The notes: generated by a model not told the origin, from the sequence alone. Shown: positions 14,711 through 45,164, counted from the stretch's first letter. The stretch is 64,000 nucleotides of DNA from a phage (GCA_029742005.1 GCA_029742005.1_4113.1); one strand, 5' to 3'. A program made the numbers and translations.

Positions 14711-15133
14711 ATGTTCACACTAAGTAATGCAAAATATCTTTTTCTTATTAGTATTATTGGTTGGGTTATGGCTCCAGTGCTAAATGCACTGGGGTTTTCC
14801 GATGAACATAAACTTTTAAATGTTTCAGGTTTAATTCAGGGTATTTCATGGTATACATTAATTACATTTTCAGTGTGCATCAATACATTTGCCCGTGAAC
14901 ATCGACGTTTGTTATATCTGAAAGTATTTGGAACTACCCGATATAGTTTTGTTTACACTTTCATTTTAGTACCGTGTATGTTATATGCATTTGTATTTGA
15001 TTACTATACATATCTATGGGTATGTGGAACTATGTTTGTTATGTTGGAATACATCAGAACTGTTCAAAACTCATATGCCGATGAATTTCATGATCTAGAA
15101 GTTAAACGAAAATTAACGGAGCTAAACAAATGA
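14711..15133 (+). CDS. integral membrane protein
   Basis: ORF track; multiple hydrophobic segments. Confidence 0.5.
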   Translation: MFTLSNAKYLFLISIIGWVMAPVLNALGFSDEHKLLNVSGLIQGISWYTLITFSVCINTFAREHRRLLYLKVFGTTRYSFVYTFILVPCMLYAFVFDYYTYLWVCGTMFVMLEYIRTVQNSYADEFHDLEVKRKLTELNK

Positions 15134-15555
15134 GAGGTTATAATAAGATTTGTATTTTTGTATTTTTAGTTTGTGCATTCAATTCGTTTGGTTACTACTG
15201 TACAGAAAATAATATTTCATATGGTTTAAATCCTTTGTGGTTTACAATTTCTAATGTAGCACAAATTGGTATTGCTCTTATGTCTGCACTTATGTTCTGT
15301 CCAATTGTCACTATGGATACTGATCATGAAAGGCTTGGATTTCTCCGTGATACTGGAGACGAACCTTACAGTAGATTGATTGTGTTGTATCCATTTATTG
15401 TTATTTTAGGTACTAACATCCAACTTGGGTCATTATCTAATAGTGTTACATCAGCAGCTATTGCTATATTTGCATTCACATTTTTTATGGTACACAAATC
15501 AGTACTTAATTGGTATATCACAAAAATGGCAGAAGAAGGTACTAAAAATACTTGA
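15130..15555 (+). CDS. integral membrane protein
   Basis: ORF track; multiple hydrophobic segments. Confidence 0.5.
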   Translation: MRGYNKICIFVFLVCAFNSFGYYCTENNISYGLNPLWFTISNVAQIGIALMSALMFCPIVTMDTDHERLGFLRDTGDEPYSRLIVLYPFIVILGTNIQLGSLSNSVTSAAIAIFAFTFFMVHKSVLNWYITKMAEEGTKNT

Positions 15556-23929: not shown

Positions 23930-24592
23930 ATGTTAGTTAATCTTAATTTCATCACTTCACCTGACTGGGCATTACGTGGGGTTTCTTTAAACTTCAAGGA
24001 AACTATGTTTGATTACATTGGTGAGTGTACATTGGTAAATGCAACTTTTGACCCAAATCATCCGTTCTGGGCTGAAATTCATGATCCAACTGTAAACAAC
24101 AATACATCTGTTATGACTATTGTCCAGACTAAACATGCAGGTATCCTTGCAGGTTATCGATCTGCACATGCAATTGAACACTTCACTGATTACGATGTCG
24201 TGGATGAATACCCAATGATCCATGAAGATGGAAGTCTATACACATCTGAAGACTTCCGTGCTATCTTTAATAGTACTGATGATATTCTACCAAGTGGACG
24301 TCCACGTCCTGAGTCTTATCTTATGCATCCATCTTATGGTGTAGCAGATACGCTTGAACAGATTATGAATAAGTACAAGAACCTAATTGAAGGTCCAGAA
24401 GAAATTGTCCTGTGCTATCACCCAGTACTGAAGTCTGAACAACCAAAGGATGGTGGATGGCGTTGGCATAAGAATGGTGAGTATATCGGTACTAAACGAA
24501 GTAAAGAACGTTTTGAGTACTTGTATGATGAGCCAGATGTTGATGTGGTTTTGTGTTATAATTTTATTAAGGTGAAAAAGAAATGTATCTAG
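23930..24592 (+). CDS. hypothetical protein
   Basis: ORF track, start moved to MLVNLN with AGGATA RBS. Confidence 0.5.
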   Translation: MLVNLNFITSPDWALRGVSLNFKETMFDYIGECTLVNATFDPNHPFWAEIHDPTVNNNTSVMTIVQTKHAGILAGYRSAHAIEHFTDYDVVDEYPMIHEDGSLYTSEDFRAIFNSTDDILPSGRPRPESYLMHPSYGVADTLEQIMNKYKNLIEGPEEIVLCYHPVLKSEQPKDGGWRWHKNGEYIGTKRSKERFEYLYDEPDVDVVLCYNFIKVKKKCI

Positions 24593-24825
24593 TACTAAGT
24601 TTTGTTGTTGCACTATTGTTTATGTTTTATCCTACACTAGTAGCATTAGCCACTAAACGACCGATTGTAGATATCACTACTGTATTCTTGCTAAACGTGG
24701 CATTAGTACTGGTGTCTATTATCATTCCAGTGAGCTTTACAGTTATTGATATTATTTCGGTATTACTCTTCGTGTTAAGTTATCTTATGCTTATTGAAGA
24801 AACAAATGTTGACAAACGTTCGTAG
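24583..24825 (+). CDS. small integral membrane protein
   Basis: ORF track; two hydrophobic helices. Confidence 0.5.
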   Translation: MYLVLSFVVALLFMFYPTLVALATKRPIVDITTVFLLNVALVLVSIIIPVSFTVIDIISVLLFVLSYLMLIEETNVDKRS

Positions 24826-24836
24826 TACTGTATAAT
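24809..24836 (+). promoter_or_regulatory. sigma-70-like promoter (class A-like)
   Basis: TTGACAAACGTTCGTAGTACTGTATAAT. Confidence 0.5.
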
Positions 24837-24882
24837 GGTTCCTGTAGTCTGAAACTTAACACTTAAACTTGAGGTAAAAAAT

Positions 24883-25209
24883 ATGCTATCAGTACTAATT
24901 TCAATTCCGTCTTTAATTCTGATTTGGCTTCTGGTTTACGAATGCTTTATTACTGATGATAATGATAAAAAAGAGTTCTCTGAGTTGTTTATGCTTGATT
25001 CACCAATTGTACGTATTTTCTATACAGTCGTTGTGGTTTCAGTAATTGTATGGGTTTTGAGTTTTATCTTCCCACTCGGTGCAGTAGTTAAAACTTTGGA
25101 TTTGGTTGAGAACTTTGTTGCAATTATGTGGCTAATTAAAGCACTATTTGCAGGAAATGTTAAAATTTGGATTGATATTATCAAATTCAAGTTCACGAAT
25201 AAGATGTAA
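24883..25209 (+). CDS. integral membrane protein
   Basis: ORF track; hydrophobic segments. Confidence 0.5.
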   Translation: MLSVLISIPSLILIWLLVYECFITDDNDKKEFSELFMLDSPIVRIFYTVVVVSVIVWVLSFIFPLGAVVKTLDLVENFVAIMWLIKALFAGNVKIWIDIIKFKFTNKM

Positions 25210-25287
25210 CAGTCAAAATACCTCTATAGTATTAAATACTTCTGTACATATATATAGTACAGAAGTATTTCTCGTTAGAGGTTTGTT

Positions 25288-25647
25288 ATGAAAAGTTATA
25301 TAAAATTAATAGCACTTGTGTGTGCATTATTTTCATGTTTTAGTTATGGTGCAGCAGCAGAAACATATTGTCGTAGTACTAAGGGAACGTGGCATGTATT
25401 GACTAACGACCCTAGAAATGGTAAAAATATAGTTGTTGATGGTGTGATTTATCGTTTTAAAGTAGAAAGTATTATCGGTAATAAAAAAATCTCGACTTAT
25501 AGAGATGATTCTGGTACATTAGCAAACGTAATATTAATTGTAGACCCAAGAACTGGTAATGGTGATATCTATATAGTAATTTACTTGGACTCATCGGTAC
25601 GCCGTGACCTAGATATAGATAAATTGAACTTACACTGTGAAATATAG
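25288..25647 (+). CDS. secreted protein, paralog of 26039..26389
   Basis: Signal peptide MKSYIKLIALVCALFSCFSYGAAAE. Confidence 0.55.
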   Translation: MKSYIKLIALVCALFSCFSYGAAAETYCRSTKGTWHVLTNDPRNGKNIVVDGVIYRFKVESIIGNKKISTYRDDSGTLANVILIVDPRTGNGDIYIVIYLDSSVRRDLDIDKLNLHCEI

Positions 25648-25658
25648 GACTTAAAAAA

Positions 25659-26036
25659 ATGGTAAACACTATTTTACTTTTGTTGTTGAATATTCCAATT
25701 ATTCTGTCTTTTTTAATTTCTATTTTTATGGCAGGATATTGTTTAGTTGCAGTAATTCATTTCATTTTAACAAACAAATATGTCCTAATTTCTAAGCTTG
25801 ATTCTATTTTTGCTTGCGATTCGATTGCTTATAACTTGTGGTTAATTTGTTCTTGCATTATGGGAGTAACTTTCCTTCTGTATGTATTTGATGTCCTTGA
25901 CCAAAAGTTCGTATATATCAGTACTGGATTGGCTCTTTATCCTGCTACGTGGTACTTGATTTACGTTGGTGATATATGGTATAGTACTTATAAAGAATAT
26001 CAGTACAAGAAATCACTTAACGTTGGAGGAAAATAA
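25659..26036 (+). CDS. integral membrane protein
   Basis: ORF track; hydrophobic segments. Confidence 0.5.
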   Translation: MVNTILLLLLNIPIILSFLISIFMAGYCLVAVIHFILTNKYVLISKLDSIFACDSIAYNLWLICSCIMGVTFLLYVFDVLDQKFVYISTGLALYPATWYLIYVGDIWYSTYKEYQYKKSLNVGGK

Positions 26037-26393: not shown

Positions 26394-26585
26394 ATGTTGA
26401 TTTATCAAAGTGATAATATTCGTGTTATGCAGCATCCCTACTTACAAATCTTTGATGTGCAGCAGTATATGGAAGGTGATGACCCAAGAACCTATGGTCG
26501 TAAGTATGATTACTTCACTGTAAAGCAGTGTAAAAATATTAACGAAGTACGACAATTAGTTCAAGAACTTCAAAACAAAGGTTGA
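26394..26585 (+). CDS. hypothetical protein
   Basis: Internal ATG after AAGGA RBS (MLIYQSDN). Confidence 0.45.
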   Translation: MLIYQSDNIRVMQHPYLQIFDVQQYMEGDDPRTYGRKYDYFTVKQCKNINEVRQLVQELQNKG

Positions 26586-32688: not shown

Positions 32689-32698
32689 TTCCGTGGCA

Positions 32699-33022
32699 AT
32701 GTGTAATGACATTGAAAGTACTAAAAAAATTTATTATAATAATGAAATAAATTATCGTTTTCATAATTTAACCACAAATAAAAGTTTACTATTTTACAAT
32801 TGTAAAGAAGTAAAATTCCCACCAGACAATAGCTGTACTCCAACTAATCAACCCCCAGCACAATGTAATACTCCCTCTGAACCTGATAAAAATAAAAAAG
32901 ACAAAGATAAAGATAAAAAAGAAGACAAAAAACCTTTAAAAGATAAAAAGAAAGATAAAAAACCTAATCCGTTTAAAAATAATAAACCAGCACAACCCGA
33001 TATGACGTGTAAAATAAAATAA
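32699..33022 (+). CDS. hypothetical Lys/Asp-rich low-complexity protein
   Basis: ORF track; KDKDKDKKEDKKPLKDKKKDKKPNP tract; start uncertain. Confidence 0.4.
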   Translation: MCNDIESTKKIYYNNEINYRFHNLTTNKSLLFYNCKEVKFPPDNSCTPTNQPPAQCNTPSEPDKNKKDKDKDKKEDKKPLKDKKKDKKPNPFKNNKPAQPDMTCKIK

Positions 33023-33031
33023 GGATATAAA

Positions 33032-33451
33032 ATGAAAAAGATTTTTTTAAGTATTATTTTAGTACTTTTTAGTTTTAATGTATATGCAGCAGATGCTAAA
33101 CAGGTTGCTAATACAGTAAAAGATGTTATAGTAGACAATGCTCCTACCTTAGAGGAAATTGGGGTAAAAACTTGTGATATTGTAATATATAATTTAGTTA
33201 ATGATGAACGAGTTATGTTGAATACGTATGAACAAGTAGTCCCATTGGTTGAATCTGGTGCTGCTTTTAGCTTTACATATAAAGTTAAATTAACAGGAGG
33301 GGTTGAAGTTAATCTTGACATTGATACCGCTTCAGTACTAAAAGATAAACTAGGATATGTGTTCAATCGTATTCGTGAAGAAGGTCATCTTAAGTATGTT
33401 TATGAAAGTAAAATACTAAAACGTGCAATAGTTATAGAAAACTGTAAATGA
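33032..33451 (+). CDS. secreted protein
   Basis: Signal peptide MKKIFLSIILVLFSFNVYAADA. Confidence 0.55.
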   Translation: MKKIFLSIILVLFSFNVYAADAKQVANTVKDVIVDNAPTLEEIGVKTCDIVIYNLVNDERVMLNTYEQVVPLVESGAAFSFTYKVKLTGGVEVNLDIDTASVLKDKLGYVFNRIREEGHLKYVYESKILKRAIVIENCK

Positions 33452-33460
33452 TAATAAAAG

Positions 33461-33492
33461 GGTTGACTTCGGTCAGCCTTTTTTGTTATGAT
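33461..33492 (+). promoter_or_regulatory. terminator-like stem-loop with embedded sigma-70-like promoter (class B cassette)
   Basis: GGTTGAC-TTCG-GTCAGCC-TTTTTTG-TTATGAT. Confidence 0.55.
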
Positions 33493-33520
33493 GTTGATAT
33501 TAACTACAGAGGATAAAGTA

Positions 33521-34162
33521 ATGACTAAGCAAGAAATATTCAAAACTTTAATTGACATTTTGCGTCCATCAAAAACTCGTTGTGCGATGGAGTTTGATAT
33601 TCCTTATGCTGAACGCGTAATCTTTCCACAAGTTAAAGCTGCTGGACTTACTTTGCTTGGAATGGGGATGTACTCTGTAGTAGTTGAACATAAAAACTAT
33701 CCTGGGCGTGCATTTAAAGTAACCACTTCACGCTGGGATGGTTTTCGTGCTTATGCAATGTACTGCATTGAAAACGCAGGAACCAAGTTTCTTCCAGTGA
33801 TCTACAGTGCAAACGAACAAGGAAACTTTGGATGGTATGAGATGGACAAGTACTATCCTATAATTAAACAAAAAAATAATTATGATGACTTTGTTAGTAC
33901 TAAAATTGGAGATTTATATTCTTATGCACATGCTGGTCAGTATGCTACTTCAGTGAATGATATGCGTGGAAATTCTGAAGAGATTGCTATTGCGACGGTC
34001 GCTGCTAACATCATGAAAGAGTTTCACGGGCGTTTTGTACCAGACATTCATTCCAGTAATGTCATGATGGATAAAGATGGCAATGTATTCATTACTGATC
34101 CTCTTTCGTGTGATGTACGTAGAGAAATACCAGTTACTGAAGAAGATCCAGTTTTTTATTGA
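33521..34162 (+). CDS. protein kinase-like fold protein
   Basis: Catalytic-loop-like DIHSSNVMMDKDGNVFITDP; start at internal ATG after AGAGGATAAAG. Confidence 0.5.
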   Translation: MTKQEIFKTLIDILRPSKTRCAMEFDIPYAERVIFPQVKAAGLTLLGMGMYSVVVEHKNYPGRAFKVTTSRWDGFRAYAMYCIENAGTKFLPVIYSANEQGNFGWYEMDKYYPIIKQKNNYDDFVSTKIGDLYSYAHAGQYATSVNDMRGNSEEIAIATVAANIMKEFHGRFVPDIHSSNVMMDKDGNVFITDPLSCDVRREIPVTEEDPVFY

Positions 34163-34224
34163 CAGAACTGATGTAATGAGGTATTCTTAATAAACCATTA
34201 AAAAGTGCGGTAAAGGATAAAATC

Positions 34225-34506
34225 ATGCGTTCATTTGAAAACTTAATAGGTAAGAATCTTTTATCTGAAATTGATGCAGACGTTAAAGAATTATCCAAAT
34301 CAAAAAGTTACATTCATTTGGATGAACTATTTGTTAAGTACGGTGAGATTGGTTTTAAGTCATTATTTGTTTTTACTATGAAAGTACATAGTTTAAAGTA
34401 CTTCGATTTGAGTGCTAAAGATGGTGAACCGAATCTATATTACATGTATTACCTTAAGAACAAAGATGAAGCTAATACATTACTCTCTGAATATATATTG
34501 GGGTAA
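34225..34506 (+). CDS. hypothetical protein (93 aa)
   Basis: ORF track; AAAGGA RBS. Confidence 0.5.
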   Translation: MRSFENLIGKNLLSEIDADVKELSKSKSYIHLDELFVKYGEIGFKSLFVFTMKVHSLKYFDLSAKDGEPNLYYMYYLKNKDEANTLLSEYILG

Positions 34507-34508
34507 AA

Positions 34509-34847
34509 ATGGAACAATATTTTGAATTAATAAACAAAGTATCATTTTATGTAGTATCTTTGGTTTGGGTGTATTATATGTTTTGCTACATTATTGCATT
34601 CTTCCGATACACTACTTTATATGAACGTATCTACTATGATGCCCCAATTTCATTCTTGATGTTTTGTGCATGTACGTGGGGAATATTAGAAGTACTGATA
34701 TGTGGGTATAGTACTGATGAATTAAATCTGGTATCGGTGTTGACTGGGTTTTCATTTGTTGTTATGATAGCTGCCGTTCCAGTATGGTTGTTCTTTGGAC
34801 TAGTTCATCGCATTGATATATGGCGTTCTAATATCCCTGAAAAGTAA
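34509..34847 (+). CDS. small 3-TM membrane protein, array member
   Basis: Three hydrophobic helices; C-terminal RSNIPEK. Confidence 0.55.
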   Translation: MEQYFELINKVSFYVVSLVWVYYMFCYIIAFFRYTTLYERIYYDAPISFLMFCACTWGILEVLICGYSTDELNLVSVLTGFSFVVMIAAVPVWLFFGLVHRIDIWRSNIPEK

Positions 34848-34850
34848 GGA

Positions 34851-35198
34851 TTGGTAATGATTTATTACACTAACATGTTTGCCTATGCTGTTGCTTGCAT
34901 TTACATTGTTTACTTCTTATTCGGTGGAGTACTGTGCTTCTTTAAGTACAAAACGTTGTTCAACCGAATGTACCCAAATCATCCAATTGTAGTTGTACTT
35001 TTGATTCTTTCAGTTTCTCAAATAATCGTTGAAACTACAATGGGTATCAGTAGTGTACATTATAGTTTTGGTACTATAGTAATTATTACTATGCTTATTG
35101 CATACATTTTAGTACTTGGATATGGTATCTTTGGTAATATTGGTATGAAAATGTATCATCGAATTAAAACATTACGTGATAATCTACCGGAGCGTTGA
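34851..35198 (+). CDS. small 3-TM membrane protein, array member
   Basis: Paralog; C-terminal RDNLPER. Confidence 0.55.
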   Translation: MVMIYYTNMFAYAVACIYIVYFLFGGVLCFFKYKTLFNRMYPNHPIVVVLLILSVSQIIVETTMGISSVHYSFGTIVIITMLIAYILVLGYGIFGNIGMKMYHRIKTLRDNLPER

Positions 35199-35199
35199 T

Positions 35200-35544
35200 A
35201 TGTATAATTTGAACCTAATCTCATATATTATAACAACACTGTTTACATTCTATGCCTTTGTTGGTATAATCCTACTGTACTTTAAATTTTATAAAGTGTT
35301 TAACCGTTTCTATCCTTCAATGGAGAATGAGTTTTTCTTTGTGTTGTACGTATGTTACACATTCATGGCTACATGTTTCACTGTAGTCGATGGTGTCATC
35401 GGCATTAAAACTGCTGCACCAAATGGTAGTACGCTGGTTGCATTTATTCTTACCGGATTCCTTGCAACTTATATTGCCTTCATTGCAACATGGTCAGTGG
35501 TTGAATTTCTCTTGCGACTACGAAAGAATATGCCGAATCGATAG
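35200..35544 (+). CDS. small 3-TM membrane protein, array member
   Basis: Paralog; C-terminal RKNMPNR. Confidence 0.55.
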   Translation: MYNLNLISYIITTLFTFYAFVGIILLYFKFYKVFNRFYPSMENEFFFVLYVCYTFMATCFTVVDGVIGIKTAAPNGSTLVAFILTGFLATYIAFIATWSVVEFLLRLRKNMPNR

Positions 35545-35553
35545 GAGACATAT

Positions 35554-35808
35554 ATGTTTGCATTGCGTAACAAAAACACTAAAGAAATATTATGTTTAGA
35601 TACCGTATGGGATTGTGCGGGATCAACTACAGTTCTTGAAGAAGGAACTGGATATTGCGTGTTTGTTGTACATGATAGGAATGAACTCGAATTATTACTT
35701 GCTGAGTTCAATGCTGGTGGTAATCCTAACAGTACTGAATACCCTGAGATTATCAATCCAGCACCACCAGGCTCTTATGAAATTCTACAACTGTGGGAGT
35801 TGAAGTAA
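35554..35808 (+). CDS. hypothetical protein (84 aa)
   Basis: ORF track; GGAGA RBS. Confidence 0.5.
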   Translation: MFALRNKNTKEILCLDTVWDCAGSTTVLEEGTGYCVFVVHDRNELELLLAEFNAGGNPNSTEYPEIINPAPPGSYEILQLWELK

Positions 35809-36188
35809 TGCGTCAAATGCACAAAGTAACCGAGCTAAACAAGCGTCTGGTTAAACAATCAATGTTCGAGGATAAAGAGTCTTATTATAACTTTAAACGT
35901 GCAGTAGAGGCTGCTATCCACATTCAGAAGCTTAAAGAACGTGGTTGTATTATTCTGGAAAATGGTTCGGAAGTTGTAACGGATGACTTTAGTGTAGCGT
36001 TTGATGTTTCACCTGACGGGACGCTATCAATGCCCCGCTTAGGAACTGGAAACATGACTGTTTGGGTTGGCTTCACTATGGGGAATGTACCTGGTACTGT
36101 GTACGTAGATGATGCGGAATTGAAAGACAGTTTCAAAAACTTATCTTATCTTGAACCACAATACGCACATGAAATGAATTTATTTTGA
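35808..36188 (+). CDS. hypothetical protein
   Basis: ATG overlaps previous stop (TAATG). Confidence 0.5.
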   Translation: MRQMHKVTELNKRLVKQSMFEDKESYYNFKRAVEAAIHIQKLKERGCIILENGSEVVTDDFSVAFDVSPDGTLSMPRLGTGNMTVWVGFTMGNVPGTVYVDDAELKDSFKNLSYLEPQYAHEMNLF

Positions 36189-36189
36189 G

Positions 36190-36217
36190 TTGACAAACAC
36201 ATTCAGTACTGTATAAT
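36190..36217 (+). promoter_or_regulatory. sigma-70-like early promoter (class A)
   Basis: TTGACAAACACATTCAGTACTGTATAAT. Confidence 0.6.
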
Positions 36218-36264
36218 GCTTATCAAGGGGATGAATTTCTCATCCCTACAATCGAGGAACTACC

Positions 36265-36819
36265 ATGATTACTTTTAAGAAAACTGCTAACCACATCCAT
36301 GAAATCTACATTAACGGTCACAAAGCTGGCCTTCTTCGTTTACTCGCCCATCATCCTGATGTTACCGTATCTGATAATGAACCTAAAGATTGGCGTGTAT
36401 TTTTCTTTGGAAAGTACAGTGATTTTCAAGTATCAAACCTGAAGAACATTCGTTCAGTATGCACGTTAACTGAAATTAAAGAAAAGTTAGAAAAAGCATT
36501 GAAAACTAATCCAGATGGTGTTCTTCCACCTGATAACTTTGTAGAGAAAGGTTATGCATTAGCTCATTTCAAAGATGGTACTATTCAATCTATCAGTACT
36601 GAATATGAATATCAATGGACTGAGTACTTCACTTATGGATCGCGTAATACATTGATGGCTTCACGTAGTAAATTGGAAGAAGTACTGACTCGTATGAATG
36701 AACGCGAACGTCAATTTTATGACAAACCAGAAATGTGGAGTTCAACTTACATTGACCGTATTGACTATGTTATTATGACTCCAATCTTTGACACTGCTTA
36801 CTATGATTCTTTGAAATAA
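36265..36819 (+). CDS. hypothetical protein (184 aa)
   Basis: ORF track; GAGGAA RBS. Confidence 0.55.
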   Translation: MITFKKTANHIHEIYINGHKAGLLRLLAHHPDVTVSDNEPKDWRVFFFGKYSDFQVSNLKNIRSVCTLTEIKEKLEKALKTNPDGVLPPDNFVEKGYALAHFKDGTIQSISTEYEYQWTEYFTYGSRNTLMASRSKLEEVLTRMNERERQFYDKPEMWSSTYIDRIDYVIMTPIFDTAYYDSLK

Positions 36820-36830
36820 GGATAACTTAT

Positions 36831-37007
36831 ATGAAACTACGTACTCGTAATCGACTGATGGATGCACTGTACCATGAACAGCTTTCACTGAATGAAGTGA
36901 AGCGACAGTTAATGTACACATATCTGTTACCCGCTCGCATTGCAAAACAACGTGCTAAAGAATTGCTGAAAGAAGCAATCGAGTACTGGGAATCTGATTC
37001 GTACTAA
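36831..37007 (+). CDS. small basic hypothetical protein (58 aa)
   Basis: Manually read ORF below track cutoff; AAGGA RBS. Confidence 0.4.
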   Translation: MKLRTRNRLMDALYHEQLSLNEVKRQLMYTYLLPARIAKQRAKELLKEAIEYWESDSY

Positions 37008-37035
37008 TTGTCACGTTAATTAAGTGAGGCGATAA

Positions 37036-37287
37036 ATGAAAATTTTATTAGTTCTAATACTACTAATTGTTTTACCATTTACGTTAGTATCCCCTGGACT
37101 TGCATGGAATGTGTTTGTGTACTTAGTATGTACTATTGTAGTAAATGGTATCTTGTTCTTAGTTCTATTCATAAATGGAATAGGACACGGTGGAGGATGG
37201 ACCAGTACTGCTGATATTGTACATAAAACCACTATGTCTTTATTTGTAGTGTGGAATTTATTCTGGACTTGGTTTGTGTTCTTCTAA
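37036..37287 (+). CDS. small integral membrane protein
   Basis: ORF track; hydrophobic throughout. Confidence 0.5.
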   Translation: MKILLVLILLIVLPFTLVSPGLAWNVFVYLVCTIVVNGILFLVLFINGIGHGGGWTSTADIVHKTTMSLFVVWNLFWTWFVFF

Positions 37288-37299
37288 TTAAAAAAAAAT

Positions 37300-37671
37300 A
37301 TGAATATAGATTTGAAAGGTGCAACCCGAACTGTCATACTCATTGGGGAATATGCTATCAAGATTCCAACCTTTAAAAGTTGGAAGCTATTCTTAACAGG
37401 GATGATAGCTAACCTCAATGAACGTTCTTGGATGCAGTACTCCAAGCGTAGTGATAGTGGTATCTGCCCTACGTTGTGGTCATCATGTACTGGACTAGTA
37501 ACTGTACAGAAACGTTGTAAGCCAGTACAACATAGGGGTTTATTTTGGGTGGAGTTGTGTGCTTTAGCATTGAATTCAGAGTTAAGTACTGACTTCTTCT
37601 ATTCAGATGCGAAGCCAGAAAACTTTGGGTATCTGGGTGGTAAGTTAGTTAAACTTGATTATGGAGATTAA
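37300..37671 (+). CDS. minimal protein-kinase-like protein (123 aa)
   Basis: Ordered kinase-like motifs: G-rich LKGATRTVILIG, YAIKIP, DAKPENFGY, KLDYGD. Confidence 0.45.
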   Translation: MNIDLKGATRTVILIGEYAIKIPTFKSWKLFLTGMIANLNERSWMQYSKRSDSGICPTLWSSCTGLVTVQKRCKPVQHRGLFWVELCALALNSELSTDFFYSDAKPENFGYLGGKLVKLDYGD

Positions 37672-37672
37672 T

Positions 37673-38095
37673 ATGTACGCACTGTATAATAAAGAAAAGA
37701 AACAATTTGCTAAGGTTGAAAAATCGATTGATACATTTGGCATGTTTAAGTACTGTATTGTGACGGACCCATATGCTAACTTGTATTACGTTCTTGATGA
37801 CGTATCAGTACTGCAACGATTGCTTGAACGTTCCAAAAGCCAATGCCAAGGTATCCATGATGGTTCAACTTATGAAACACCTGAGTGTTCCTATGGCTAT
37901 CTGGATGGGTATGAGATTGTGAAGTTGGGTGCATTGTTGATTAATGAGGAATTTATGAAACTATGTACATGTGATGATTGTGGTAAACAAATACCAGAAA
38001 GTGAAGTATATCGTAATGAAACTGCATTCGGTGATGATGGTGACTACTGCCAGGATTGTTTTTACGAGAACCATTATGATTTTGGCGATGATTAA
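37673..38095 (+). CDS. hypothetical protein with C-terminal zinc-ribbon
   Basis: CTCDDCGKQ ... YCQDCFYENHYDF; internal ATG after GGAGA RBS. Confidence 0.5.
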   Translation: MYALYNKEKKQFAKVEKSIDTFGMFKYCIVTDPYANLYYVLDDVSVLQRLLERSKSQCQGIHDGSTYETPECSYGYLDGYEIVKLGALLINEEFMKLCTCDDCGKQIPESEVYRNETAFGDDGDYCQDCFYENHYDFGDD

Positions 38096-38101
38096 AACAA
38101 A

Positions 38102-38134
38102 GGGTTGACTTCGGTCAGCCCTTTTTGTTATAAT
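38102..38134 (+). promoter_or_regulatory. terminator-like stem-loop with embedded sigma-70-like promoter (class B cassette)
   Basis: GGGTTGAC-TTCG-GTCAGCCC, T-run, TATAAT. Confidence 0.6.
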
Positions 38135-38162
38135 CATTTCATCGAAACGAGAGGATGAATAC

Positions 38163-38678
38163 ATGACACGCATTAACTTAGTACACGTTAAAGAACTTGC
38201 TGACCAACATCTGATGGCTGAATATCGTGAACTCCCACGTGTATTTGGTGCTGTACAAAAACACGTTCAAGCACGTAAGCGTGTACGTGATTTCAAAATT
38301 AACAGTACTTACCTGTTAGGTTCAGGTCATGTAACATTCTTCTACAACAAGTTATTGTACTTACAGAAGCGTCATATTGATATTGTTAACGAATGTTTGC
38401 GTCGTGGTATGAAGATTCAAAACACTGAAGTAAACGACATTAGCGGATTCCCTGCTGAGTTTTGTAATGACTACGTACCATCGGAGTCAGAGATTAAAAT
38501 GTCTCGTGAGCGTTTGATTGAGAAGCTACAGATGAAGCCTACGTGGTATAAATTTACTGACGTTGAACGCCCACAGTATGTTAAAGATATGCAGGACGTA
38601 AGTAGTAATATAGAATCTAGTACTGATTTGTTCGACGAAATTGAAGAACAAATCAAAGATGAAATGAATAATTATTAA
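38163..38678 (+). CDS. denV: endonuclease V, pyrimidine-dimer DNA glycosylase
   Basis: N-terminal two-thirds closely matches T4 DenV as recalled from memory (MTRINL...[18 protein letters not shown]...KRVRDFKI...GHVTFFY); extra acidic C-terminal tail. Confidence 0.85.
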
Positions 38679-38685
38679 AGAAAAG

Positions 38686-38718
38686 GGTTGACTTCGGTCA
38701 GCCCTTTTTGCTATAATT
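38686..38718 (+). promoter_or_regulatory. terminator-like stem-loop with embedded sigma-70-like promoter (class B cassette)
   Basis: GGGTTGAC-TTCG-GTCAGCCC, TTTTTG, CTATAAT. Confidence 0.6.
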
Positions 38719-38745
38719 ATTTCATCAACTGATGAGGATAACGAA

Positions 38746-39516
38746 ATGACCAGAGAAGCACGTAGCATTCAAATCCAGAAAAACTTCAACTCCATGATGG
38801 TTGCTCTTGAGTGTTTGCTCGATGATAGCAGTACTGTAAAAAGTATGGTTGTCAGCGGTGCACCTGGTGTTGGTAAGACTTACACCCTGTCACAACGCCT
38901 CCAGAAAGCTCATGACGCAGCAGAATGGAACGTAGCTACTATCAGTGGTAAGATGACTACTCTTGCTCTGTATGAAGTTCTGTACAAGAATCGTCACAGC
39001 ACTAACGTATTAGTACTGGATGATATGGACAGCATCTTTGATTCAGAAGACGGTATGAACCTGCTCAAAGCAGTACTGGACAGCGGTAAACGTACTGTGT
39101 CTTACATGACTAGCTCTAAGTACTTAACTACCAACGGTATCCCTAACAGCTTTGATTTTAACGGTCGTATCGTATTCATTACTAACAAAGATTTAGCACT
39201 GAATGCTAAAGCTAAAACCAAAATGTCTGCTCACTATGCTGCTCTTATGTCTCGCTCTGTGTATGTTGACTTACAGATCCAGACTAAAAGCGATATCATG
39301 ATTCACATTGAAAACGTAATGAACAAGACCAACATCCTGTCAACTAAAGGTGTTAATAGTAATGGTAGTAAAGCAATCCTGAATTGGATGCTGAAACATG
39401 AAGATGCACTTCGTGCCCCTTCACTGCGTATGCCTCTGTTGATTTCAGCAGTATACAACAACAACCCGTATGATTGGGAAGAGCAGTGCGAAAACTTGTT
39501 CCTTGAGAAAATTTAA
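38746..39516 (+). CDS. P-loop NTPase (Walker A GAPGVGKT)
   Basis: Walker A motif VVSGAPGVGKTYT and Walker B-like VLVLDDMD. Confidence 0.6.
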   Translation: MTREARSIQIQKNFNSMMVALECLLDDSSTVKSMVVSGAPGVGKTYTLSQRLQKAHDAAEWNVATISGKMTTLALYEVLYKNRHSTNVLVLDDMDSIFDSEDGMNLLKAVLDSGKRTVSYMTSSKYLTTNGIPNSFDFNGRIVFITNKDLALNAKAKTKMSAHYAALMSRSVYVDLQIQTKSDIMIHIENVMNKTNILSTKGVNSNGSKAILNWMLKHEDALRAPSLRMPLLISAVYNNNPYDWEEQCENLFLEKI

Positions 39517-39583
39517 TTACATGTATTGACAGTACTACACTATGGTAGTACTATAACTTAATATTCACCACCGGAGATACGAT

Positions 39584-39922
39584 ATGCTTGAGTTTTTTAA
39601 TTCAGATACAATGCTTAGTATTACTTTGATTTATCTGTTTGGTTTTTTCTTTTATCATGCACTAGTTGTAGTACTATGGTATTTTAAAAAGAAAATCGTT
39701 TTCAAACTGTATCCTGATGGAAACATTTCACTACTTCTTTTCACTATTATCCAAGGTATGTTTGCAATTGTTGGTCTTATCGCACACTTAATTTATTGTG
39801 CTAATCCACAGTTGAACTCAATATCACAATATATTGTATTCCTTGGATTACTAATTTGGGTGCTGATATACTTGTTTAATCTCATCATTAATGGTAGAGC
39901 AAAAATTCGTGGGGACTTCTAA
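39584..39922 (+). CDS. small 3-TM membrane protein, array member
   Basis: Paralog of 34509-35544 family. Confidence 0.55.
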   Translation: MLEFFNSDTMLSITLIYLFGFFFYHALVVVLWYFKKKIVFKLYPDGNISLLLFTIIQGMFAIVGLIAHLIYCANPQLNSISQYIVFLGLLIWVLIYLFNLIINGRAKIRGDF

Positions 39923-40269
39923 TGTTTGAATCTTATCTTGAGTTTTTAAAGAGTAGTTCTGTTGCACATTCAATTGCAGGGATTATTCTAACAGGTTATG
40001 TAACATTTTGGGTAGTTATGTTTCTAGGATGGTATTTTAAACGACAATTCTATAAGCGTAATGGTGAAGATTTTATGAATTCTTTCATTAATCAATCGTT
40101 GTTTGCATCAACATTGATAGCATGTATTGTAGCAACACTCACAGGAAAGGTACTGCCAGCATTCTCCGCAGTTTACGGTACATTGGGTATGATATGTGTA
40201 GTTTTTTACTTGACCATTAAACTTTGTTGTGTTATGATTGAACTTCGAAACAAGATACCGGAGGAATGA
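39922..40269 (+). CDS. small 3-TM membrane protein, array member
   Basis: Coupled start; C-terminal RNKIPEE. Confidence 0.55.
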   Translation: MFESYLEFLKSSSVAHSIAGIILTGYVTFWVVMFLGWYFKRQFYKRNGEDFMNSFINQSLFASTLIACIVATLTGKVLPAFSAVYGTLGMICVVFYLTIKLCCVMIELRNKIPEE

Positions 40270-40604
40270 TGGAATATTTTTTACACTTACTGCCGTGGTA
40301 TATGAAAGTTAGTACTATGTACTATATTCTTAGTGCTGGATTCTACTTTCTGATGTGGTTCTTCAAACGACCAATTTCAGTATTCATCTCTGATAACATG
40401 CTGCAATTAAAATTACACGCATGGTTTTTTATGGCGATGTTTATGCCTATTATTCACTACTCAATGATTAGTAGAGGTTTACGTTCTAATGGTGAACCAA
40501 TTATATTAGTATTCTATTGGGGTTCAACTATTGCATATGTAAGTTTGTTGTTGATCCCAGCCGTTCATAAATTACGTGCTAAAGTTCCTGATGTGAGGTA
40601 CTAA
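40266..40604 (+). CDS. small 3-TM membrane protein, array member
   Basis: Overlapping ATGA junction. Confidence 0.55.
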   Translation: MMEYFLHLLPWYMKVSTMYYILSAGFYFLMWFFKRPISVFISDNMLQLKLHAWFFMAMFMPIIHYSMISRGLRSNGEPIILVFYWGSTIAYVSLLLIPAVHKLRAKVPDVRY

Positions 40605-40918
40605 TGGATATCTTAACATTGATTTACACGTTGTATTCATTCTATTTTATTATGTGTTGGGTTGGATTTTTATTTGTACTGAAGATGTTTGATTATGTTG
40701 AAAAACAGATAAAAGAATTTTGTATTCCTTTTATTGGGTCAACCATTATTAGTATTACTTGTTTGTATTATTTGGTATGTGATCCACCTGATGATACAGC
40801 TATGATTGATTTCATGTTATTGCCAACAACTGTTATTTTTTTATGTAGTCTGATGCCACCGATTAGCCGTGGACTAACTGAATTTAGACGCAATCAAAAG
40901 CGTAAACGAGGGATGTGA
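40604..40918 (+). CDS. small 3-TM membrane protein, array member
   Basis: Coupled start. Confidence 0.55.
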   Translation: MDILTLIYTLYSFYFIMCWVGFLFVLKMFDYVEKQIKEFCIPFIGSTIISITCLYYLVCDPPDDTAMIDFMLLPTTVIFLCSLMPPISRGLTEFRRNQKRKRGM

Positions 40919-41286
40919 TGGAAATTGCACTTATTATATTAACTGCTATGTTGTTTATTAGTACAATTGTTATTATTGGCAAGTTCTTCTGTGTATCCTT
41001 CTTGGAAACCGTATACGATGAAATTGCTGATGATTATGAATTACATGCGGGATTTTTTACTACGTATTGGATTAGTTTATTACTACTTATCACTGTATGG
41101 ATTTTACATATATTCAAATGGGGTATGGTAGATGGTGATCCAGTACTGGCAATTATCTGTGTAGTGTTTGGTCTACTCGGTGGTGCTGTCCATAATCTGA
41201 TGGTAATTTGGCAAACCGTACAATATGTATTAGTTCCACATTTTCAGAGAATGCACCAAAGCATCAAATACCGCAAACGAGGATAA
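40915..41286 (+). CDS. small 3-TM membrane protein, array member
   Basis: Overlapping junction. Confidence 0.55.
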   Translation: MMEIALIILTAMLFISTIVIIGKFFCVSFLETVYDEIADDYELHAGFFTTYWISLLLLITVWILHIFKWGMVDGDPVLAIICVVFGLLGGAVHNLMVIWQTVQYVLVPHFQRMHQSIKYRKRG

Positions 41287-41287
41287 C

Positions 41288-41650
41288 ATGAATAATATTG
41301 AATTATCTTTTATTGGTCAATTAATGGTAATGGCGTATACATTTATCTTCTCACTGAATGCATTCGTGTGCATTGGGAAGTACTTCCATAAGCGACCATT
41401 ATCAAATATATATGATGTAATCCAAAAGAGATATAGTCCAGCATATACTGTGTTGGGTACAGTATTCAATTTTGGTTTTATTGTATTAATAATTGGACTG
41501 TTCACATCCTCTTTGAATACAATAACCTTCGGTCTTATGATATGTTCATTGGTATTAGCCGTAATTATATGTTGTTTAGTACTACACCTTGTGATACTAT
41601 TATATATAAAGATCTCTGAAATCCACCAACGTTTGGGTATGAGGAAATAA
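41288..41650 (+). CDS. small 3-TM membrane protein, array member
   Basis: Coupled start. Confidence 0.55.
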   Translation: MNNIELSFIGQLMVMAYTFIFSLNAFVCIGKYFHKRPLSNIYDVIQKRYSPAYTVLGTVFNFGFIVLIIGLFTSSLNTITFGLMICSLVLAVIICCLVLHLVILLYIKISEIHQRLGMRK

Positions 41651-41651
41651 T

Positions 41652-42023
41652 ATGAGTTACCGTGAGATATTTTCCATTATTTCAATTATTATGTTCAGTA
41701 CTGGAACACTGGTATGGTTATTATATTTCTTCTGTATTAATCCAGTGTATAATATGTTATGTAATATTAAATCAAGTGCCGGATATATCACTTTTATGGT
41801 CTTTATGGGATATTATTGTCTAAGCATTTTAGGTGTTGTTTTGGTTGTTATATTTGATGTGGGGCCAAATAGTGATGGTATGGAAATACATGAATTAATA
41901 ACCATGTTTGGATGTATGATACCAACAGCACTACTGTTTGTAGCTACTGGTAGTGGATTGATAAAATTATATAATTATTTAAAATCCATTCATAATTCCA
42001 TTCATAATAAGCGTATGTCATAA
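41652..42023 (+). CDS. small 3-TM membrane protein, array member
   Basis: Coupled start. Confidence 0.55.
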   Translation: MSYREIFSIISIIMFSTGTLVWLLYFFCINPVYNMLCNIKSSAGYITFMVFMGYYCLSILGVVLVVIFDVGPNSDGMEIHELITMFGCMIPTALLFVATGSGLIKLYNYLKSIHNSIHNKRMS

Positions 42024-42065
42024 TAAAAAATCCAGTACTATTAAGTACTGGATGTATAAGGAGTT

Positions 42066-42728
42066 ATGATGAAATCAAAATTAGGTTTGTTTTATAAAAA
42101 CTATTTTGTTAAACAACGTAAATTTATAAAAAAATATTTCTCTGGTGAGAAGTCTAGTCCTATAATTTTTAAAAGACCAAGTTATAATACTTACTTAGCT
42201 GGTGCTAAACAGTCTAAGAAATTTATTACTCTTTTAAATAAAAACAAAATTAAAGCTTCTTATGTTGAAACGAGAAGAAACTCATCAATAACTCCTGGTG
42301 ATTTTATTGAGTACGGATGTTTCAATATTAAGTATAATGATAATACATACTTTATGGATATTGATTGTAATACATCCAATCTTTTTAACATTGTAGTAAA
42401 TCCATTAAAACAATATAATGTTTATGGTGATTCTATTATCAAATTAATAAAAAACAAAGATGGCTTTGATTTTGAAATAAATGTTTTAGATGATAATTTT
42501 GACGAAGTACCCGTAAACCCTGAAATCTGTGATATTTTAAACAGTTTAAAAGGTAGTACCTACAATATATCATCTGATTTAATGTTTCAGTACTCATTAA
42601 TCCATAAAGATATTGAAAAGTATATTGAATGCTCCAGAATTTTGAATTTTCTCTATGATGAATTTAAAAAGAGTTCTAAAATAACTGCATACACTTTGTA
42701 CAATATTCCTAAAATGGTGAATCTTTAA
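42066..42728 (+). CDS. hypothetical protein (220 aa)
   Basis: ORF track; AAGGAG RBS; last plus-strand gene before strand switch. Confidence 0.55.
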   Translation: MMKSKLGLFYKNYFVKQRKFIKKYFSGEKSSPIIFKRPSYNTYLAGAKQSKKFITLLNKNKIKASYVETRRNSSITPGDFIEYGCFNIKYNDNTYFMDIDCNTSNLFNIVVNPLKQYNVYGDSIIKLIKNKDGFDFEINVLDDNFDEVPVNPEICDILNSLKGSTYNISSDLMFQYSLIHKDIEKYIECSRILNFLYDEFKKSSKITAYTLYNIPKMVNL

Positions 42729-43132
42729 CAAATACAGTACTGGCAACTCCACCGTCTGTAATATATTGTCCAGTACTGTAAATTTGTATACCATCGGTTA
42801 AGTAAGTTCTGTATAAAGTTGCTGTAACATATACGTTATTCATATTCATCTCTATTGGTAGTACACATTTGGTATAGGCCGACACATCTGTTTGTGTACC
42901 TATACCCAATTGACCTGCGTTATCGCCTGTGTTATTACCAGTTGCGTAAACACCCAATGAAGTTATAATATGATTAGAAAAATATGAATAACCCAAACTC
43001 TTGAGATTCTCTACTGTACAACGTACCATCTGACATAAGGGCAAAAACTGTTGTATCAGATGAAGCTATTTTTGTTACAGAAGGTTGTATGTTCTGTTTT
43101 GATGATGTGATAATTCTTCGAAAGGGTAGCAT
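42709..43132 (-). pseudogene. truncated and frameshifted RCC1-like paralog
   Basis: N-terminus MLPFRRI in one frame (42974..43198) continues in another frame (42709..43044) carrying GNNTGDNAGQLGIGTQTD. Confidence 0.5.
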
Positions 43133-43203
43133 TGTATCCTCCAAATGTAAATCGTTATTATATTTAGGACAAAAAATGCCAGTACAAGGCACTGGCATAA
43201 AAT

Positions 43204-44373
43204 CTAAGCAGAAGGCATATCCTTCATCTTAATAAATGAAAATTGTGTACCAGTATTTGTGGTTTGATCAGTAAAATATGAATTACTACCAGCCCAGTAC
43301 AATTCATTATTAACTATACAATATATAACAGAACTCGAACTCTGTGAATACACACGACTTATATTTGATGGTTCTACTCCAGTACTGAACTGAACCGAAC
43401 CCAACTGTGAACTTGGTATCACATCAGTTGGTCTACCTAAACCATTAACACCAGCCCCACCACCACATGTATATACCCCAGTACTATCAGTTGATATATT
43501 AACATAACCATTCCCGGCATTTTCAAATAGTATTTCACTGGGAGCAACACCAAATCCTGTAAGATCTATTTTCCTGAATGTAGTGTAAACAGTAGAACCA
43601 CCAACACCTCTTCCACCATAATCATTAGAACCAGCCATATAGATACTATATCCAGAACTTCCTAAACATAATAACTGTACGTTGTCATATAATATTTGCA
43701 TAGATATAACGTTATCAGGAATACTCAATACCGTAAAAGTAGTTAAAGAAGAACTTCCAATATTACTACCAACCGATGTTCCACATCTGTAGTACTTACC
43801 GCCTTTTATATAATGGAACGATGAACCCCCTAACTTATGTGCTCCTATTGCACTTACCTCAGTATCTATGAGAATGGGAGATACAACTTTGTTATTAACA
43901 CCTAACTCAGATCTACTGTTCATACCGAACCCATATAAACGACCATCTAACATCAATATTAGTGTACTACCGGAAGTACCCGCTGACGTAAATTCTATAT
44001 TCTTTATTTGCGACACGTCAATACCTACAAATAATGAAGTTACTTCAGTCCAGTTAACATATGAACCACTAGCCCCAAAATATCCACCCATGTATAGACC
44101 TGCACAATATAATTTATTATCAACAGTCTTTATTAATGTACCGGATACACACGCCCAAAAATCATCAACTTCATAGGGTACATGTACCCAACCACCTAAT
44201 ACATCACTAGCATCCCCTGTACCTAATTTATAGTTCGAACCAGAACCACGCATGTACATATTCCCTGTACTATAAAGTAATCCGACATGTAATTGACTAC
44301 CATCCAATTTCTTTATTTCGGGAAGAGTTGGTTTAATATTTCCGTACTTTAACATTCTTCCAAAAGGTAACAT
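43204..44373 (-). CDS. RCC1-like beta-propeller repeat protein, array member 1
   Basis: Start at MLPFGRMLKYGN after AAGGAGG RBS; repeated Y-x-x-G-x-N-x-x-G-x-L/G-G motifs. Confidence 0.7.
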   Translation of the reverse strand: MLPFGRMLKYGNIKPTLPEIKKLDGSQLHVGLLYSTGNMYMRGSGSNYKLGTGDASDVLGGWVHVPYEVDDFWACVSGTLIKTVDNKLYCAGLYMGGYFGASGSYVNWTEVTSLFVGIDVSQIKNIEFTSAGTSGSTLILMLDGRLYGFGMNSRSELGVNNKVVSPILIDTEVSAIGAHKLGGSSFHYIKGGKYYRCGTSVGSNIGSSSLTTFTVLSIPDNVISMQILYDNVQLLCLGSSGYSIYMAGSNDYGGRGVGGSTVYTTFRKIDLTGFGVAPSEILFENAGNGYVNISTDSTGVYTCGGGAGVNGLGRPTDVIPSSQLGSVQFSTGVEPSNISRVYSQSSSSVIYCIVNNELYWAGSNSYFTDQTTNTGTQFSFIKMKDMPSA

Positions 44374-44444
44374 AATTCCTCCTTTATTCATTATACTATA
44401 TTTAATACAAAAAGAAAAGCCAGTACAGAGTACTGGCCTATATT

Positions 44445-45164
44445 TTAGACTGAATTGTTAGGATAATATCTCCCACGTCCCCATATTATTCGCACAGCAC
44501 CACCACCAGCAGCCGTATAAGAAAAATTATCCCATATACTACCACCACCACCATACATCTTACCAGCACCACCACTACCAGCACCACCATTATATGAACC
44601 ATCGTATCTACCGCCAATACCATTAGCACCTTGAACAATGATACCAGTACCACCACCCGTACCAATGAACGAGGTATTATAGAATGCACCACCACCGCCG
44701 CCGCCGCCAGCACCATTTTCACCAGTGATTGCATCTCCGTTACCACCTTTACCAGTGTAGCCACCAGCACCACCACCAATGACTGCACCACCACTTACAC
44801 CAGCGTTGCCCCCATTACCACCACCATCATTAATAGCGTTAGCAGCTTTCCCACCTAGTCCACCAACCCTATATTCACCAGTGAAGCTAACACATAGTTT
44901 TTCAGTTCCACGATATAAACCGTTTTCAACTGGTGTAGTAGTGTTGGGATGTGTAAGAGAAACACTTAAGTACTCACCACTAGTAACCGGAATATTATTA
45001 CGCCACGATAAGCCGCCACCAGCACCACGTTGACCACCCGGCGAAATAACACATACTGATATTTCGGTAACGCCAGCAGGAACTGTAAATTGTGTTGTTC
45101 CTATTGTCGTGATTAATTGTTCACCATGTGGCTTATATTCAATTTTATTCCCTCCTTTATTCAT
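44445..45164 (-). CDS. glycine-rich repeat protein (start codon uncertain)
   Basis: ~100-aa N-terminal domain then GGxGG-rich tract ending GGGAVRIIWG; same upstream cassette as RCC1-like genes. Confidence 0.55.
   Translation of the reverse strand: MNKGGNKIEYKPHGEQLITTIGTTQFTVPAGVTEISVCVISPGGQRGAGGGLSWRNNIPVTSGEYLSVSLTHPNTTTPVENGLYRGTEKLCVSFTGEYRVGGLGGKAANAINDGGGNGGNAGVSGGAVIGGGAGGYTGKGGNGDAITGENGAGGGGGGGAFYNTSFIGTGGGTGIIVQGANGIGGRYDGSYNGGAGSGGAGKMYGGGGSIWDNFSYTAAGGGAVRIIWGRGRYYPNNSV

Follow-up and report, generated by a model that had tools for sequence, protein, structure and literature searches.

Ten small three-helix membrane proteins encoded in two arrays around denV form one family in a 121Q-like jumbo coliphage

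A stretch of phage DNA of 64,000 nucleotides (GCA_029742005.1_4113.1, hereafter the window) was analysed for two arrays of small membrane-protein genes lying on either side of denV. The ten genes (m1 to m10) were shown to encode small inner-membrane proteins with three helices, all of one family that is ancient and restricted to phages. The window comes from a 121Q/PBECO4-like jumbo coliphage of the genus Asteriusvirus, with bases 34000-42500 matching Escherichia phage fEgEco12 at 92% and ~30 other Asteriusvirus genomes. A sequence-only reading of the window had placed three of the genes at 34509-35544 and seven at 39584-42023 and had taken them for paralogs of ~105-123 amino acids (aa). All ten open reading frames (ORFs) were found at these places on the plus strand and measured 104-123 aa after correction of start codons. 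Starts were chosen by Shine-Dalgarno spacing and by the annotations of the relatives fEgEco12 and 121Q; ATG 34857 was favoured over TTG 34851 for m2, and ATG 35200 over GTG 35176 for m3. The genes are listed below with their C-terminal tails, their matches in PHROGs (with E-values) and their scores against a family hidden Markov model (HMM).

34509-34847, plus strand: m1, array 1, 112 aa, tail RSNIPEK; phrog_19285, 4e-59; family HMM 85.7 bits
34857-35198, plus strand: m2, array 1, 113 aa, tail RDNLPER; family HMM 67.4 bits
35200-35544, plus strand: m3, array 1, 114 aa, tail RKNMPNR; family HMM 79.8 bits
39584-39922, plus strand: m4, first gene of array 2, 112 aa, tail GRAKIRGDF; phrog_19454, 1e-46; family HMM 86 bits
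39922-40269, plus strand: m5, 115 aa, tail RNKIPEE; phrog_19046, 1e-50; family HMM 104 bits
40269-40604, plus strand: m6, 111 aa, tail RAKVPDVRY; phrog_27396, 5e-58; family HMM 64 bits
40604-40918, plus strand: m7, 104 aa, tail FRRNQKRKRGM; phrog_33258, 1e-50; family HMM 57.6 bits
40918-41286, plus strand: m8, 122 aa, GKFFC motif, tail HQSIKYRKRG; phrog_26405, 1e-60; family HMM 75.8 bits
41288-41650, plus strand: m9, 120 aa, GKYFH motif, tail HQRLGMRK; family HMM 85.9 bits
41652-42023, plus strand: m10, last gene of array 2, 123 aa, YFFC motif, tail HNSIHNKRMS; phrog_27618, 1e-70; family HMM 98.6 bits

Paralogy was assessed by pairwise and by profile methods. Pairwise identity in an alignment of the ten was only 13-25%, and BLASTP supported only some pairs (m1-m2 at 1e-9, m2-m3 at 8e-6, m10-m1 at 1e-3, m4-m5 at 2e-3, m8-m9 at 9e-3). 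In PHROGs the ten fell into seven separate families with few weak cross-matches; m5, which cross-matched phrog_16874, 19454 and 27396, was the hub of the similarity network. The low identities and the non-significant BLASTP pairs, together with the T-rich composition of the region (AT skew -0.08 to -0.15), would speak for unrelated hydrophobic or chance ORFs that resemble each other merely through having three transmembrane (TM) segments.

This reading was refuted by the profile comparisons, for which orthologs were taken from fEgEco12, 121Q, ph0011, BF17, A4 and Muenster. The later ortholog and conservation analyses also drew on JNE01, RaK2 and Erwinia phage Hallingskeid; the CMSTMSU locus was left out as an unverified record with many frameshifts. 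Alignment of the orthogroups by hhalign gave 94% for m5-m6 and for m5 with Muenster gp554/555, 85% for m1-3 with m4, 74% for m8-m10, 58% for m8-m9, 52% for m5-m9 and 39% for m4-m5. No hhalign link to the other orthogroups was obtained for m7. Six other small multi-TM families of the same loci, used as controls, reached ≤4% each against the family and ≤4.4 bits with its HMM. HMMs built with one orthogroup left out recovered every group (E-values at Z=2000), m6 and m7 being the weakest. The window copies were recovered at 2e-7 (m3), 1e-8 (m4), 1e-12 (m5), 0.024 (m6), 1e-3 (m7), 3e-7 (m8), 8e-9 (m9) and 1e-9 (m10), with m1 and m2, which fall in the A1 group, at 5e-7 or weaker. Orthologs of the two weak members were recovered at 1e-6 (Muenster gp557, for m6) and 3e-8 (the A4 ortholog of m7). 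The orthologs were also found to be under purifying selection (see below), which again argues against chance ORFs. The paralogy claimed by the sequence-only reading was thus borne out: TM prediction did not fail and homology between the members was detected.

The family was delimited with the same HMM on six-frame ORFs of the window, where the ten scored 57-104 bits and the next ORF 8 bits; the window thus contains exactly ten members. Small TM ORFs at 14711, 15130, 24583, 24883, 25659 and 37036 were tried as further members and rejected (≤4.4 bits). A profile of the ten was highly specific: among 1.84 billion representative proteins it matched only 23 clusters at E≤1e-3, all of 99-125 aa and of the same architecture except for two fragments. 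In the databases the family is held as eight unconnected PHROGs (19285, 19454, 19046, 27396, 33258, 26405, 27618 and 16874) that carry neither a function nor a statement of paralogy, and the present analysis joins these eight into one superfamily.

Membrane topology was predicted from hydropathy and charge. Three Kyte-Doolittle peaks of ≥1.6 were found in nine of the ten proteins, in agreement with the three hydrophobic helices first proposed; m6, the weakest, has one strong and two weaker peaks. Counts of lysine plus arginine, summed over the ten, were low in the N-terminus and in loop 2 (4 each) and high in loop 1 (28) and the C-terminal tail (41). By the positive-inside rule this distribution gives an N-out/C-in arrangement, so that the N-terminus and loop 2 are predicted to be periplasmic and loop 1 and the basic tail cytoplasmic. 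The GenBank record of Muenster carries the note 'TMHMM: 3 TMDs; N-out, C-in' (TMDs, transmembrane domains) on gp554-557 and gp559, and two TMDs are noted there for the m7 ortholog gp558. m1 was modelled with AlphaFold2 on the basis of the ten-protein alignment (predicted local distance difference test score 74), and the model has three long helices and a short loop helix (helices at 2-32, 35-41, 45-65 and 74-107, the short one being 35-41). A fold search with this model against BFVD and the PDB returned no match below E=0.69.

Two signatures were common to the family. The first, [FY]-F-[KRC] with an invariant Phe, lies where TM1 ends on the cytoplasmic side; the second, h-x-x-h-[RH]-x-[KN]-[IL]-[PK]-x-[RK], lies in the tail and contains an invariant R/H. 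Both residues were conserved at 100% in 85 weighted sequences, and F32 was the sole invariant column among the ten window proteins. The basic tail of the form R-x-N-I/L/M-P that had been noticed in several members was found, when relaxed to R-x-[NK]-[ILMV]-P, in m1, m2, m3, m5 and m6; it does not describe the other five, whose tails follow [RH]-x-x-h-x-x-[KR][KR]. Two subgroups were distinguished, m1-m6 with WYFK/FFKR and an R-x-[NK]-h-P tail, and m8-m10 with GKFFC/YFFC and an H-x-x-h-x-x-[KR][KR] tail. m7 is an outlier and the most divergent member. Conservation among orthologs was highest in the N-terminus, TM1 and loop 1 (57-58%) and lowest in TM3 (38%), TM2 (46%) and periplasmic loop 2 (48%).

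The genes in each array are closely packed. The sequence-only reading had described overlapping ATGA junctions; most junctions were instead 1-nucleotide (nt) overlaps of the form TAATG or TGATG (m4/5, m5/6, m6/7, m7/8) or 1-nt gaps (m2/3, m8/9, m9/10), and a 4-nt overlap arises only with the alternative starts 40266 (ATGA) and 40915 (GTGA). The Shine-Dalgarno sequence of each downstream gene lies within the tail codons of the gene before it (for example at 35170-35200, 39905-39922 and 40250-40269), as where CCGGAG supplies both Pro-Glu codons and GGAG. The array genes are translationally coupled. Because the conserved tail codons are also a ribosome-binding site, each paralog carries the start signal for its downstream neighbour, which would make tandem duplication units self-sufficient.

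Distribution of the family was examined with single members and with profiles. Orthologs of m2 were found in 33 records, all Asteriusvirus, and m2 itself was 100% identical in 21 phage records; m1 was 100% identical to 121Q gp207. Searches by tblastn with m4 and an m10-like protein added the divergent Asteriusviruses A4, Turkey5 and JNE01 as well as RaK2-like Klebsiella phages of the genus Alcyoneusvirus, in which GenBank already labels members 'putative membrane protein, 3 TMDs'. Erwinia jumbo phage Hallingskeid, where two or more members lie side by side in a NadR/PnuC context, represents a third lineage. A scan of IMG/VR with the m10 profile gave nothing beyond 121Q and RaK2. When 5.8 billion proteins were searched by word index with a family alignment of 47 sequences, all matches were of Asteriusvirus or RaK2 type. 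One metagenomic match (P0034) lay in an A4-like contig with the same layout. Ten membrane paralogs had been called unusual for one phage; this is fair as far as the number goes, but the arrays are not peculiar to this phage, being common to all Asteriusvirus and to RaK2-like Klebsiella phages. The literature on 121Q, PBECO4, RaK2, CBB, Muenster, phAPEC6 and Sharanji, and a review of jumbo-phage comparative genomics, do not discuss the family. It is undescribed in the literature searched, with annotations reading just 'hypothetical' or 'putative membrane protein'.

A link to phage phi92 was rejected as spurious. GenBank notes of ph0011 name 'Phi92_gp233' on its m4-like gene and 'Phi92_gp231' on its ATPase. 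The phi92 proteins gp231 (121 aa) and gp233 (75 aa) both scored ≤-1.0 bits against the family HMM, and phi92 was not matched by tblastn with m4 at E≤1. The ph0011 record carries such notes on several genes ('Phi92_gp226/231/233/234'); the sizes differ, and no HMM or tblastn similarity was found for the two checked.

Array 2 was compared with the corresponding locus of Muenster, where, as in RaK2 and K64-1, a P-loop NTPase gene lies a few hundred base pairs (bp) upstream of eight three-TM genes (gp554-gp561); two small non-family ORFs (gp552 and gp553) stand between the NTPase gene and the array. Orthogroup HMMs assigned gp554/555 to m5, gp556 to m4, gp557 to m6 (3e-24), gp558 to m7 (1e-21), gp559 to m8 and gp560 to m10 (2.5e-36). 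Aligned orthologs are just 23-41% identical to those of the window, and the order of m4 and m5 is swapped. No clear counterpart of m9 or of array 1 (m1-m3) was found in the stretch of Muenster examined. Since Muenster has orthologs of six types, the array-2 paralogs diverged before the Asteriusvirus/Alcyoneusvirus split and their order has been largely kept.

The array genes are under purifying selection, with constraint weaker than in the ATPase or the kinase beside them. Ratios of nonsynonymous to synonymous substitution rates against orthologs were 0.1-0.46 for the array genes, compared with 0.03-0.18 for the ATPase and 0.06-0.08 for the kinase. The number of family genes is not constant: an additional m4-like gene is present in 121Q and in ph0011, two m7-like genes occur in JNE01, and array 1 of A4 consists of a single gene in place of three. 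In 121Q, m7 is split into gp228/gp229, short ORFs of 180 and 168 bp, and the split gene in this viable phage is probably a frameshift or pseudogene. Compared with phage A4, the flanking proteins are 93-99% identical and the array members 27-65%; in JNE01 the divergent block takes in the ATPase too (60%). The array is a recombining hot-spot with gene gain and loss within Asteriusvirus.

The window is itself mosaic at the locus. Tile identities over 33000-43000 showed 121Q-like sequence (98-100% nt) until ~36 kb, fEgEco12-like sequence (96-100% nt) from 36.25 to ~41.4 kb, and 121Q-like sequence again beyond ~41.5 kb. The second breakpoint, at the fEgEco12-like/121Q-like junction, falls inside m9, so that m4-m8 of one haplotype are joined to an m10 allele 63% identical to the m10 of the partner haplotype.

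The two arrays are separated by 4,039 bp holding ten ORFs, among which are denV and a P-loop ATPase, as the reading of ~4 kb between the clusters had it. Features around the arrays that bear on expression and function are as follows.

33488-34162, plus strand: T7 gp0.7-like protein kinase of host-takeover type (phrog_15752, 2e-97), upstream of array 1
34225-34506, plus strand: 93-aa soluble protein (phrog_37917, unknown function), its stop 2 nt before the m1 start
38163-38678, plus strand: denV, pyrimidine-dimer DNA glycosylase (Pfam Pyr_excise PF03013, 9e-15)
38746-39516, plus strand: P-loop/AAA ATPase of T4 NrdC.10 type (Pfam AAA matches), directly upstream of array 2; not a family member
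39526-39556, plus strand: putative sigma-70-like promoter, TTGACA-17-TACTAT, with palindrome TTGACAGTACTAC-N6-GTAGTACTATAAC, then a GGAG Shine-Dalgarno before m4
42030-42053, no strand assigned: perfect hairpin ATCCAGTACT-ATTA-AGTACTGGAT, directly after the m10 stop, with the T-run on its minus-strand side

The gp0.7-like kinase had no Pfam match at E≤0.01. The 93-aa ORF probably leads the array-1 transcription unit, and a promoter-like site was found before it at 34159-34187. In the m4 promoter the palindrome (GTACTAC-N6-GTAGTAC) sits between the -35 and -10 boxes, and element and palindrome are both kept in fEgEco12, 121Q, ph0011, BF17 and the divergent JNE01. No T4-type late motif (TATAAATA) was found in 30-45 kb. 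From this context we infer that the arrays may be expressed early.

The function that we tentatively favour for the ten proteins is that of early, largely independent inner-membrane effectors, similar to those of superinfection exclusion or host takeover. Host RNA polymerase would transcribe the arrays early, within a host-takeover block containing the gp0.7-like kinase, denV and the NrdC.10-like ATPase, and the products would be integrated into the inner membrane of E. coli. Each paralog would act largely alone on a different membrane target, which it may recognise through its variable second half (TM2, periplasmic loop and TM3). Together the paralogs might form a battery protecting the inner membrane of the infected cell, either by keeping out the DNA of competing phages (superinfection exclusion of the Imm/Sie kind) or by making membrane-bound functions or defences of the host ineffective. 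Superinfection exclusion or immunity had been put forward in the sequence-only reading and appears plausible. The exclusion idea draws some support from the sigma-70-like promoter, the host-takeover gene neighbourhood and the hot-spot diversity; conflict loci typically show diversity of this kind in genomes that are nearly identical elsewhere. Modular action is favoured over an obligate complex because gene loss, duplication and chimeric haplotypes occur in viable phages.

Several results weigh against this proposal. No Imm, Sp or Sie (superinfection exclusion), holin, defence or anti-defence match was obtained in Pfam (including Imm_superinfect), NCBIfam, PHROGs or PADLOC at E≤1, the Pfam, NCBIfam and PADLOC scans giving sub-threshold noise only. 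Promoter-like matches were not enriched in the AT-rich window (70 found, 65.6 expected from shuffles). In the Muenster GenBank record gp560, which is the m10 ortholog, and gp561 are noted as N-in/C-out, and this makes the predicted topology less secure for the m8-m10 subgroup. Asteriusvirus and Alcyoneusvirus share six of the seven array-2 types one-to-one and with little change of order, a pattern that would agree equally with a complex of fixed, non-redundant subunits.

Such a complex is the main rival. The paralogs would all be parts of, or adaptors in, one inner-membrane assembly built by the phage, for instance a hetero-oligomeric scaffold or channel, and their conserved cytoplasmic motifs would dock a common partner, possibly the upstream P-loop ATPase. 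The orthologs of m4, m5, m6, m7, m8 and m10 stand in their near-constant order in Muenster despite saturated synonymous sites, tight translational coupling would match expression levels, and residues conserved family-wide occur only at the cytoplasmic face. The ATPase adjoins array 2 in Asteriusvirus and in RaK2-like phages (the adjacency was seen in Muenster, RaK2, A4 and JNE01), and in JNE01 ATPase and array diverge together. Set against this, m7 is split in 121Q, copy numbers vary between phages, and the window is a chimera whose m9-internal breakpoint pairs divergent alleles. Close gene packing is general in this genome. The ATPase was rejected as an obligate partner: tblastn found the NrdC.10-type family in 1,310 phage records, mostly T4-like phages without the array, and T6, which was checked, has no membrane array beside its ATPase. 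Hallingskeid has family members with no ATPase nearby, and the A4 ATPase is 96% identical where the array members are 27-65%. We regard the assembly as rather unlikely. A narrower form, in which m4-m10 make a hetero-oligomeric inner-membrane machine (channel or platform) specific to RaK2/121Q-type jumbo phages and possibly driven or loaded by the ATPase, seems less probable still; to our knowledge such a machine has no counterpart in smaller phages.

It is very doubtful that the proteins are holin- or antiholin-like and time lysis. The resemblance to class I holins such as lambda S105 and P22 gp13 is one of architecture, with ~105-120 aa, three TMDs, a predicted N-out/C-in topology and a charged (here basic) cytoplasmic C-terminus. 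For none of the ten was there a holin family match in Pfam, NCBIfam or PHROGs at E≤1, and no Met-Lys-Met-type dual start was found. No endolysin or spanin lies beside either array, where the neighbours are the kinase, denV, the ATPase and unknowns, and in relatives the locus shows HNH endonucleases, not lysis genes. The arrays also stand among early-type genes behind a sigma-70-like promoter (by consensus match), and ten copies would be unprecedented for a holin.

The effector reading was set beside known systems. T4 Imm and Sp, P22 SieA and HK97 gp15 are small inner-membrane proteins, produced early or by a prophage, and the infected cell's envelope is where they act. Imm, Sp and Sie proteins and holins, the few small phage membrane proteins with a characterised role, control entry to or exit from that cell. 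The likeness to the ten would lie in the predicted early-type context and in the conflict-type hot-spot diversity of the array. The known exclusion systems differ in being single genes with one or two TMDs, as against arrays of seven to ten three-TM paralogs, and they have no sequence similarity to the ten (Pfam Imm_superinfect gave no match at E≤1). Tandem paralogs in jumbo phages are exemplified by the PhiKZ inner-body or injected proteins sharing PF12699 (bioRxiv 10.1101/2024.03.24.586471). These, and the RCC1-like paralogs, are likewise lineage-specific tandem families kept as sets in jumbo phage, but they are soluble virion proteins unrelated in sequence to the ten, which are integral membrane proteins without a known virion role.

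Few phage genes are as poorly understood as those for small membrane proteins. The locus offers a compact family of 7-10 related genes with a clear signature, a good system for finding targets, and at least four divergent haplotypes in otherwise near-identical genomes, plus natural losses and duplications, make up a natural allelic series. It is of relevance to phage-therapy cocktails of 121Q/PBECO4-like phages, where mutual exclusion would matter.

The remaining observations concern the surroundings of the arrays. The hairpin at 42030-42053 is likely a transcription stop where gene orientation switches, and GC skew changes sign near 42 kb at this switch. Several terminator-like hairpins (42030-42053, 43176-43198 and 44417-44439) have a CCAGTAC...GTACTGG stem in common. 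An 18-nt hairpin with a UUCG loop, GGTTGACTTCGGTCAGCC, occurs on the plus strand at 26580, 29822, 32375, 33461, 38103 and 38686 (6 copies, 0 expected). All copies are intergenic, and they stand before the kinase, denV, the ATPase and other genes. Its stem includes a TTGACT -35 box, with TATAAT ~18 nt downstream, and the element looks like a combined terminator and promoter unit.

Other small or unusual ORFs were noted in the window. A cluster of small multi-TM ORFs lies at 14711-15555 (140 and 141 aa) and further multi-TM ORFs of 80, 108 and 125 aa at 24583-26036, the latter kept in ph0011 and BF17; both sets are unrelated to the ten (≤4.4 bits; hhalign ≤10%). An 83-aa hydrophobic protein at 37036-37287, ending in WNLFWTWFVFF, is 96-99% identical across Asteriusvirus, including the array-divergent A4 and JNE01, and its likely ortholog is Muenster gp543 (hhalign 68%). 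The ORF at 32693-33022, for which there was no PHROG match, has an extremely K/D/P-rich, low-complexity C-terminal half (KKDKDKDKKEDKKPLKDKKKDKKPNP). After the strand flip that follows array 2, the minus strand at 43204-45164 encodes a 395-aa RCC1-like paralog ('DNA condensation') and an ORF of 239 aa that is rich in glycine. RCC1-like proteins are listed as virion proteins in the phAPEC6 paper, and in relatives their genes form a tandem paralog series of their own.

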